DNA of 64,000 bases from the IMG/VR virus record IMGVR_UViG_3300036846_001176, positions 29,048 through 93,047 of that record. One strand, given 5' to 3'. The stretch's first letter is position 1; the number at the start of each line of letters is the position of its first letter. A program made the position numbers and the translations under genes. A model generated the notes under the pieces. It was not told the DNA's origin, made no database searches, and worked only from the letters and a program-made list of their open reading frames with translations. Below are positions 1,000 through 1,910 of the stretch, piece after piece. The stretch comes from a virus.

Positions 1000-1910
1000 A
1001 TGCCGGCCGGGCCGTGCCTCGGCGTGCCTTGCCCTGCCTCGCCACGCCTGCCGTGCCTAGACGAGCCTTGCCCAGCCATGCCCTGCCTGCCGTGCCCCGC
1101 CGCGCCGAGCGTTGCCCTGCGCTGCCGTGCCGAGCCTGCCGTGCCGAGCCACGCGAGGCCCGGACGCGCCGTGCCTCGCCACGCCTGCCATGCCTCGACC
1201 TGCCGCGCGGAGCCATGCCGTGCCACGCGATGCCGAGCCTGCCGGGCCCTGCCTCGCGCGGCCGCGCCGCGCCATGTCGCGCCAAGCCATGCCGAGCCTG
1301 CCTTGCCCTGACATGCCCTGCCGAGCCGGGCCTGGACTTGCCACGCCTGCCAAGCCGCGCCTTGGCGTGACGCGCCCAGCCTTGCCATGCCCGCCGTGCC
1401 CAGCCATGCCGCGTCGTGCCGGGCCATGCGATGCCGCGCCTAGCCTGCCGTGCCAAGCCAGGCCGGGACACGCCCGACCACGACCTGCCATGCGCTGACA
1501 TGCCTGCCGCGCCGGGCCACGCCTCGCCACGCCGGAACGGGCCATGCCATGGCGCGCCATGCCTGCCCCGCCTTGCCGAGCCCTGCCGTGCCTAGCGGCG
1601 CCGAGCCCCGCCCCGCCTGGCCTGCCTTGCCGAGCCGTGCCACGCCGTGCGTTGCCGAGCCATGACCTGCCAAGCCTCGCCTGCCGTGACGGGACTTGCC
1701 TTGACCTGCCACGCCTCGCCACGCCTGCCGAGCCGTGCCACGCCATGCCCTGACGAGCCGTGCGTTGCCATGCCTGCCGAGCCACGCCGAGACGTGCCTT
1801 GGCTTGTCTCGCCATGACGCGCCTCGTCGTGCCTGCCAAGCCATGCCCTGCCAGGCCTTACCGCGACTGGGGAGGCCATGCCGTGCCACGCCTGCCAAGG
1901 TGCACCTGCC
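1000..1910 (-). ncRNA. GGC-NN pentamer guide array (VIPR-like), 17 units of 39-59 nt
   Basis: Plus strand parses as NN-GCC pentamers (variant triplets gac, gcg, gtc, ggc, acc, aac, ggg). 4-nt gcc-t-gcc delimiters at 1046, 1085, 1134, 1183, 1237, 1296, 1345, 1443, 1502, 1561, 1620, 1679, 1723, 1772, 1831, 1890 and variants at 1002, 1389; all spacings are 5n+4. Directly downstream of RAMP-like operon. Confidence 0.9.

Follow-up and report, generated by a model that had tools for sequence, protein, structure and literature searches.

We analysed a 64,000-nucleotide stretch of phage DNA (positions 29,048 to 93,047 of IMG/VR virus record IMGVR_UViG_3300036846_001176, hereafter the window) in which an array of GGC-NN pentamers lies next to a gene that we assign to vipr, the protein component of the Viral Interference Programmable Repeat (VIPR) system. 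Our analysis suggests that one unit of this array, W7, is a guide against capV, the gene for the membrane-destroying phospholipase effector of the cyclic-oligonucleotide-based anti-phage signalling system (CBASS). VIPR was described in 2026 (10.64898/2026.04.26.720920; structures in 10.64898/2026.04.26.720927). In these systems Vipr, a small protein of RAMP fold, polymerises on guide RNAs (vrRNAs) made of GGY-NN pentamers; each NN dinucleotide pairs with the target and one further base, usually the wobble base of a codon, is skipped, and double-stranded DNA is silenced from either strand (10.64898/2026.04.26.720920; 10.64898/2026.04.26.720927). By definition Vipr is a small RAMP that has a single RRM and a glycine-rich loop, and its gene stands beside the repeats.

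The features on which the argument turns are the following (window coordinates).

961-992, minus strand: hairpin that closes the array on its 3' side; its loop carries the conserved motif CAACGGTTCACCGG
1005-1895, minus strand: staggered vrRNA array, 17 complete units of 7-11 pentamers with GGCA steps between them
1505-1508, minus strand: 4-nt junction GGCA (TGCC on the plus strand) beside W7, on its 3' side in the RNA sense
1509-1563, minus strand: unit W7, 11 GGC-NN pentamers
1564-1567: 4-nt junction on the other side of W7, TGCC on the plus strand
1912-2445, minus strand: candidate vipr-accessory gene (vap), 177 aa, between vipr and the array
2418-3263, minus strand: vipr, 281-aa form with a predicted RAMP (Cas7/Csm3-like) fold; the open frame reaches 3464

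A guide array beside a vipr gene

Read on the plus strand, the array is a lattice of NN-GCC pentamers, and on the minus strand of GGC-NN pentamers. This lattice is interrupted 18 times by a 4-nt step (GCC-T-GCC on the plus strand, GGCAGGC on the minus strand), every junction having the form GGC-N-GGC, a 4-nt step within the 5-nt lattice. By its sequence the junction layout appears to fit the staggered VIPR subtype, where adjacent vrRNAs overlap by 1 nt and have no spacer or tail. GGC fills 124 of the 164 constant triplets and the remainder are mostly GTC or CGC, so that about 24% of the triplets deviate across the whole array; some units hold 7-8 repeats, shorter than the roughly 9-16 published per guide. 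The CAACGGTTCACCGG loop of the closing hairpin also ends two other arrays of this genome, with stems that differ and still pair through compensatory changes. Among 80 related loci only 4 have this 3' hairpin motif, and it is therefore not a clade-wide tail. An Rfam scan of the whole 64,000-nt window gave no match.

The vipr gene and the 177-aa gene stand directly upstream of the array on the same strand; among the 80 related IMG/VR loci, 553 of the 559 parsed repeat units are on the vipr strand. About 1675 unannotated proteins, roughly 235 aa long, make up the family of the vipr product. When its structure was predicted with an alignment, at a predicted local distance difference test score (pLDDT) of 77.6, the top 28 structural matches of the model were all CRISPR RAMPs (Cas7/Csm3/Cmr4), with VIA Z up to 10.6 and a Foldseek E of 8e-5; the lone 348-aa frame gave an unusable model (pLDDT 34). 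Moreover, the family profile matches PDB 36pp_D, 'SUSP1 Vipr protein', with E 6.4e-5 over the strand-helix-G-loop region GxGxxRP. The predicted RAMP fold and the SUSP1 Vipr homology together identify the product of 2418-3263 as Vipr. Thus the VIPR framework, which a reading made from the sequence alone had assumed, holds here: a vipr gene of predicted RAMP fold lies upstream on the same strand, and the reading rule that had been applied is the published one.

W7 spells the nucleophile elbow of CapV-type patatins

Unit W7, called guide K in the sequence-only reading, has the following plus-strand letters from position 1509, the varying dinucleotides being in lower case.

gcGCC ggGCC acGCC tcGCC acGCC ggAAC ggGCC atGCC atGGC gcGCC atGCC

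Its eleven dinucleotides (gc gg ac tc ac gg gg at at gc at) are exactly those that had been claimed, and two of its 11 constant triplets differ from GCC on the plus strand, AAC at 1536-1538 and GGC at 1551-1553. If the dinucleotides are taken as codon positions 1 and 2, they give A G T S T G G I/M I/M A I/M. The sequence-only reading had seen in this the GxSxG elbow AGTSTGGIIA of patatins, and had supposed that the targeted patatin might be a defence effector such as CapV.

The corresponding pattern GCNGGNACNTCNACNGGNGGNATNATNGCNAT, in which two bases are read and one is skipped, was scanned over one genome per prokaryotic species (596 Gb). It has at least 120 exact matches in these species genomes, where about 0.05-0.1 would be expected by chance. 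IMG/VR adds one more. All 121 matches listed are codon-aligned and lie inside patatin open reading frames (ORFs) of about 336 codons. The matched frames read ...DGGGIxG...FDLIAGTSTGGIIAIGL..., the W7 site being some 50 codons into the gene; DGGGIxG stands about 35 residues upstream of AGTSTGGIIA, and DGGGxxG is present in all 121. The catalytic-Asp motif (L/I/V)DGGVWANNP follows about 141 codons downstream of the serine motif in the CapV loci, and in an alignment of the target patatins (A2) D200, G201 and the nucleophile elbow are invariant. Among the matches listed the taxa include Acidobacteriota, Planctomycetota, Bacteroidota and Bacillota, and most often Alphaproteobacteria. Since the wobble bases vary freely from match to match, the agreement reflects conservation of the protein and not one recent DNA copy.

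We also considered the adjoining junction as a twelfth W7 dinucleotide, 'ct'. This was rejected because the codon preceding the motif is ATN in 110 of the 121 matches listed.

Are these patatins CBASS effectors? All 63 target proteins tested match NCBIfam NF041079, CBASS_lipase, a cyclic GMP-AMP (cGAMP)-activated phospholipase (best E 1.2e-86), and all 63 likewise match the PADLOC models for CBASS phospholipase effectors (best E 3e-113); the targets are therefore patatins of the defence type and not housekeeping ones. The PADLOC cyclase models match 33 of 59 immediate downstream neighbours of the target capV and 17 of 50 upstream neighbours. With a hidden Markov model of the cyclase grown from two verified cyclases and run on the fetched stretches of the 121 loci, we find a CD-NTase in 79 of the listed loci, always on the capV strand (downstream 52 times, upstream 32 times), and in 29 of the 41 loci that have at least 2.5 kb on both sides. 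The same-strand cyclase marks those 79 loci as CBASS operons. The pattern search thus led to full-length patatins, many of them inside such operons, and the family models and the neighbouring cyclases together indicate that the target family is CapV of CBASS, in agreement with what the sequence-only reading had proposed.

To gauge specificity and breadth, we scanned an even sample of 401 alphaproteobacterial species genomes, with the reversed W7 pattern as control. At two mismatches or fewer W7 has 38 sites in 37 of the 401 genomes (4 exact, 10 with one mismatch and 24 with two), whereas the reversed pattern has 0 sites in the same genomes. A search with the CapV model in 151 of the sampled genomes found a CapV-like gene (E 1e-30 or better) in 27, and in 13 of these the W7 site lies inside that gene. 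On these sequence counts W7 would cover about half of the alphaproteobacterial CapV-like family at an NN match of at least 91%; the published threshold for calling a natural VIPR target is 80%. Scores above the curated cut-off were found for the one member whose score was given and for 5 of the 27 genes of the alphaproteobacterial sample, and part of the target family is therefore CapV-like and not strictly CapV. The phage genome itself, a 104.6-kb record of an uncultivated virus, rated 100% complete, contains neither a W7 site nor a patatin gene of its own.

Guides against CapV in related phages

The closest relative of this phage, which we call the sister phage, is a 102.6-kb IMG/VR contig with a Vipr 66-72% identical. 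One of its guides reads (I/M)VGTS(S/R)GGIIA, the same elbow shifted by one codon and with two residues different from W7. This guide has four exact metagenome matches: three are CapV-like patatins with FDLIVGTSSGGIIA (PADLOC CBASS phospholipase model, E 3e-87) and the fourth is an unrelated GxSxG hydrolase. In a further phage, L148 (Vipr 60% identical), a guide reads (F/L)AGGVWANNP, on the catalytic-Asp motif. At 18/20 or better the CapV loci contain 30 sites for it, of which 29 are in frame, as against 0-2 matches in all for shuffled guides. That three phages aim at two catalytic motifs of one effector family argues strongly against coincidence.

Could such guides be common in this group? We propose, tentatively and at somewhat less than an even chance, that VIPR arrays include broad-spectrum counter-defence guides written on the catalytic-motif codons of CapV, with at least three phage lineages of one Vipr clade, of unrelated hosts, carrying them. 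Each such guide would silence CBASS across hosts and alleles, could not be escaped without destroying the effector, and would be distinct from the known protein anti-CBASS factors.

In the related IMG/VR loci L126-L207 many guides spell conserved enzyme motifs, among them the Walker-A-like YG(H/Q)PGVGKTT (L163) and G(D/E)PG(I/M)GKS (L182). Judging from these sequences, phages of this Vipr clade may generally place their guides on invariant motifs.

Proposed mechanism

The best-supported reading of W7 is anti-defence, a function predicted from its sequence. More specifically, we lean, with somewhat more confidence than doubt, towards RNA-guided silencing of CBASS through capV by the VIPR system of the phage, judging from the sequence matches and the analysis of the target loci. 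W7 would probably be transcribed together with vipr from the minus strand, and cleavage of the transcript would fall on the GGCA steps or close to them, W7 being processed into, or acting as, a vrRNA of 11 GGC-NN repeats. Vipr protomers would hold the GGC triplets and present the NN bases, which would pair with double-stranded DNA while every third base is skipped, so that the capV site would be bound as an R-loop triplex. The NN bases of W7 are complementary to the capV coding strand at codon positions 1 and 2 of the nucleophile elbow. A complex bound there would stop transcription about 150 bp into capV, and where capV is the first gene of its operon it would block transcription of the downstream CD-NTase as well, thereby disabling CBASS abortive infection. 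The expression and processing of W7, target binding and repression, a host with a matching capV and a benefit to the phage are what we infer. The guide reads only the amino-acid-determining bases of a motif under catalytic constraint, and a single guide would therefore cover many alleles across phyla and be hard to escape.

Several points weigh against this picture. About a third of the exact-match loci are without a CD-NTase within the fetched stretch, and among the six ORFs neighbouring the exact target of the sister guide PADLOC found no cyclase. When the other 30 guides of the phage were compared with the 121 CapV loci at two mismatches or fewer, only chance-level matches of the shortest guides appeared; with no further guide on the CBASS loci, there is no concerted anti-CBASS programme. 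The capV sites come from genome collections and not from a genome shown to be infected by this phage. Moreover, a genome rated complete in which no tyrosine integrase and no serine recombinase or resolvase is found suggests that the phage may be virulent, and silencing after infection would leave the existing CapV protein in place unless the operon is induced by infection or the latent period is long. In W7 itself 2 of the 11 constant triplets deviate from GGY, and perturbing GGY abolished silencing (10.64898/2026.04.26.720920), although natural vrRNAs often show internal degeneracy (10.64898/2026.04.26.720920). Finally, if the 177-aa accessory is a nuclease, the outcome would be cutting rather than silencing.

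Alternative explanations

The alternative that survives best, though we think it unlikely, is that W7 is a weapon against a competing mobile element that carries CBASS and is marked or silenced through its conserved capV, in other words a piece of warfare between elements. We keep it because CBASS operons often ride on mobile elements (prophages, satellites, islands, plasmids). In the published work natural VIPR guides are directed at satellites, prophages and other VIPR systems, unit W1 of the same array targets the vipr of the sister phage, and one exact capV match does lie on a 67.7-kb viral contig. However, that is 1 exact match among the 2.9 million viral contigs of IMG/VR, against at least 120 in cellular species genomes. 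Nor is capV essential for the propagation of an element, unlike the recombinase or the regulators hit by known vrRNAs. Silencing the CBASS of a rival would, furthermore, be counter-defence for the phage too, and to that extent the two readings overlap.

Much the same matches could arise if W7 directed Vipr to the host chromosome for other ends, as a sink or decoy or as an entry point for damage by the accessory protein, capV being merely a reliable address. Satellite-encoded solo vrRNAs are known from the published work to redirect Vipr onto decoy sites located within host genomes, some published VIPR types have nuclease or helicase accessory genes, and the 177-aa accessory here matches no Pfam family and no PDB sequence. 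We regard this as improbable: those decoys belong to elements without vipr, whereas this phage encodes vipr; with a site in only about 9% of the sampled genomes capV would make a poor universal address; and the convergence of three phages on two catalytic motifs of one defence gene points to the gene itself.

Equally doubtful, in our view, is a W7 match without present function, the guide being decayed or hitch-hiking, whether through its two degenerate triplets or because the current host is free of CBASS. The two deviating triplets among its 11 would suit such decay, and that four other 11-unit guides have no exact IMG/VR match shows that guides lacking an identifiable target are common. Yet all 22 specificity bases of W7 are intact with respect to the CapV consensus, the share of deviating triplets across the array makes W7 typical, and the CapV guides retained by related phages are fitted to different alleles and motifs. 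That the region is a coding or structural pentanucleotide repeat and no guide array we find very hard to credit: an NNGCC repeat is by construction nearly stop-free in all frames, and ORFs of 100-260 aa do overlap the array region, but a 5-nt periodicity with 4-nt steps would shift any reading frame, such arrays co-occur with vipr homologues in Alphaproteobacteria-like phages, mycobacteriophages, Gordonia phages and a cyanophage, and the NN code fits real genes under the published 2+1 rule (W7 on capV, W1 on vipr).

Other guides of the array

Four further units of the array have readable or symmetrical sequences.

1838-1892, minus strand: unit W1, matching the vipr family at VTMQHAK(L/M)SIF, codon-aligned
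1568-1622, minus strand: unit W6, adjoining W7; its plus-strand NN read P(F/L)(D/E)LVYA(D/E)PPW
1244-1298, minus strand: unit W12, reading GLSRAAIA(N/K)I(D/E), reminiscent of an XRE-type helix-turn-helix
1141-1185, minus strand: unit W14, nearly palindromic (GT GA AC .. GT TC AC)

By its sequence match W1 is an anti-VIPR guide of the published kind. It agrees with the vipr of the sister phage in 20 of 22 bases (VTMQHAKMSIF) and with the phage's own vipr in 18 of 22, the latter being spared because it has TCG (Ser) and TTG (Leu) at codons that the guide reads as AGY and CTN. Six-fold codon families seem to be the sole synonymous escape that a wobble-skipping code leaves. On the phage's own genome no guide reaches an NN match of 86%, this fit of W1 to its own vipr being the best. 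The motif of W6, to which the sister phage carries a similar unit, resembles motif IV (DPPW) of N6-adenine, or MT-A70-type, DNA methyltransferases. The palindrome of W14 might mark an operator-like, non-coding target. Exact IMG/VR scans of the 11-repeat guides W5, W6, W8 and W12 gave no match.

Genomic surroundings and related loci

Outside the window, far from vipr, the phage genome holds four further GGC-NN arrays with about 14 more units, which we call solo arrays. These and the other features of the surroundings are given below, in window coordinates unless marked otherwise.

Genome 20040-20560, 22530-22650 and 23000-23080, plus strand: solo arrays (locus L001, 10040-13080)
Genome 100320-100380, minus strand: solo array (locus L002)
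3780-4349: gene for an end-protection protein like Mu Gam (Pfam Sipho_Gp157), a short way upstream of the vipr block
Genome 4696-5622 (locus L003): Erf-like annealing protein
4639-4666, minus strand: sigma-70-like promoter match, upstream of the gene string that ends with vipr, the vap candidate and the array
22498-22592, minus strand: ARAGORN call of a 95-nt tRNA-Thr (TGT)
39800-41750: dense 9/18/27-bp tandem repeats rich in GGN/CCN

A sigma-70-like promoter immediately precedes each of the solo arrays at 22530 and 23000, and those at 20040 and 22530 close with the CAACGGTTCACCGG hairpin loop as the window array does. The match at 4639-4666, one to the consensus only, is a possible operon promoter. 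The candidate accessory gene of 177 aa matches phrog_15946 and viral hypothetical clusters only, and shares 62% identity with its positional counterpart in the sister phage; its protein has no Pfam family, PDB sequence match or named Atlas cluster.

The order of the Gam-like gene and the vipr block is the same in the sister phage, whereas the Erf-like protein is encoded elsewhere in the phage genome. The sole tRNA call falls within a long coding frame of the plus strand (22112-23791) and is probably a false positive. In the repeat-rich stretch at 39800-41750 frames with a high GC content at third codon positions (GC3) are open on both strands; its sequence resembles that of a collagen-like Gly-X-Y stretch in a structural gene of the tail-fibre type.

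The best cultured relatives of the phage are Brevundimonas phages, with 40% identity in the portal and about 65% over a few hundred bases. Among cultured phages array-like DNA and Vipr homologues occur in the same kinds: Mycobacterium Cheoctovirus, Gordonia phages and a cyanophage. Zizzle, 26 other mycobacteriophages, 5 Gordonia phages and Cyanophage Cy-LDV1 encode a Vipr homologue of 33-54% identity with array-like DNA adjoining it. In Mycobacterium phage Zizzle (locus L004, record 37300-38286) the array-like DNA is right beside the gene of the Vipr homologue. This locus lies between the antirepressor and excise genes, and the annotation shows small hypothetical proteins in place of its array (genes 53 and part of 52); these are probably spurious ORFs that overlie a vrRNA array.

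Comparison with known systems

We place the locus in the VIPR family by predicted fold, homology to the SUSP1 Vipr, repeat grammar, strand and targeting rule. Like type II VIPR (SUSP1, a Pseudomonas fulva prophage) it is phage-encoded and combines a Vipr of predicted RAMP fold with GGY-NN repeats on the same strand, wobble-aligned 2+1 targets and an anti-vipr guide. Unlike type II VIPR, its units have no individual structured 3' tail: 17 of them abut through GGCA steps and one hairpin closes the array. It differs further in a Vipr too divergent for BLAST to reach SUSP1, in an accessory gene of no named family, and in that the target of W7 is a host-type immune effector gene. The legend of fig. 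S18 in the discovery paper, which covers 667 VIPR systems, describes staggered arrays whose neighbouring vrRNAs share 1 nt, so that each begins where the one before it ends (10.64898/2026.04.26.720920), and as far as that legend goes the GGCAGGC junctions fit the 1-nt overlap.

Active-site codons are a known targeting habit of VIPR (10.64898/2026.10.15.759431). CBASS, patatins and anti-defence targets receive no mention in the three VIPR papers found (10.64898/2026.04.26.720920, 10.64898/2026.04.26.720927, 10.64898/2026.10.15.759431), and a natural vrRNA on CapV would thus be a new use of a known system. The natural VIPR targets known so far are satellites, prophage regulators and other VIPR systems. 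If true, the fit of W7 to CapV would extend VIPR from a war between viruses to the direct, sequence-programmed suppression of host immunity, an extension strengthened by the related guides on another allele and on the catalytic-Asp motif. It also suggests a design principle: a guide on an invariant active-site motif would work across phyla because only the amino-acid-determining bases are read. The same logic could be applied to any collection of vrRNAs in order to find other immune genes that phages silence.

With the Class 1 CRISPR-Cas systems (Cas7/Csm3/Cmr4) VIPR shares the fold, a filament on a guide RNA with periodic unpaired positions and, as predicted here, a block of the CRISPR-interference (CRISPRi) type. 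Unlike them, it has no CRISPR repeats and spacers, no cas1/cas2, no Cas5, Cas6 or large subunit and no protospacer-adjacent motif (PAM), and its guide information is non-contiguous.

Phages also counter CBASS with proteins, namely the nuclease Acb1 and the sponge Acb2, which act on the cyclic-nucleotide signal once it is made. The presumed goal of W7 is the same, escape from CBASS abortive infection; in contrast to Acb1 and Acb2, W7 would have the effector gene's DNA as its point of attack, and it would be programmable by sequence. The Vibrio phage ICP1 uses a full type I-F CRISPR-Cas system against the PLE island, with DNA destruction and with spacer acquisition against a specific satellite. 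Here, as in ICP1, a phage-borne RNA-guided system has guides that match an anti-phage element in a host genome. However, the system that we describe is a minimal VIPR, and it appears to be aimed at a catalytic motif common to a whole effector family.

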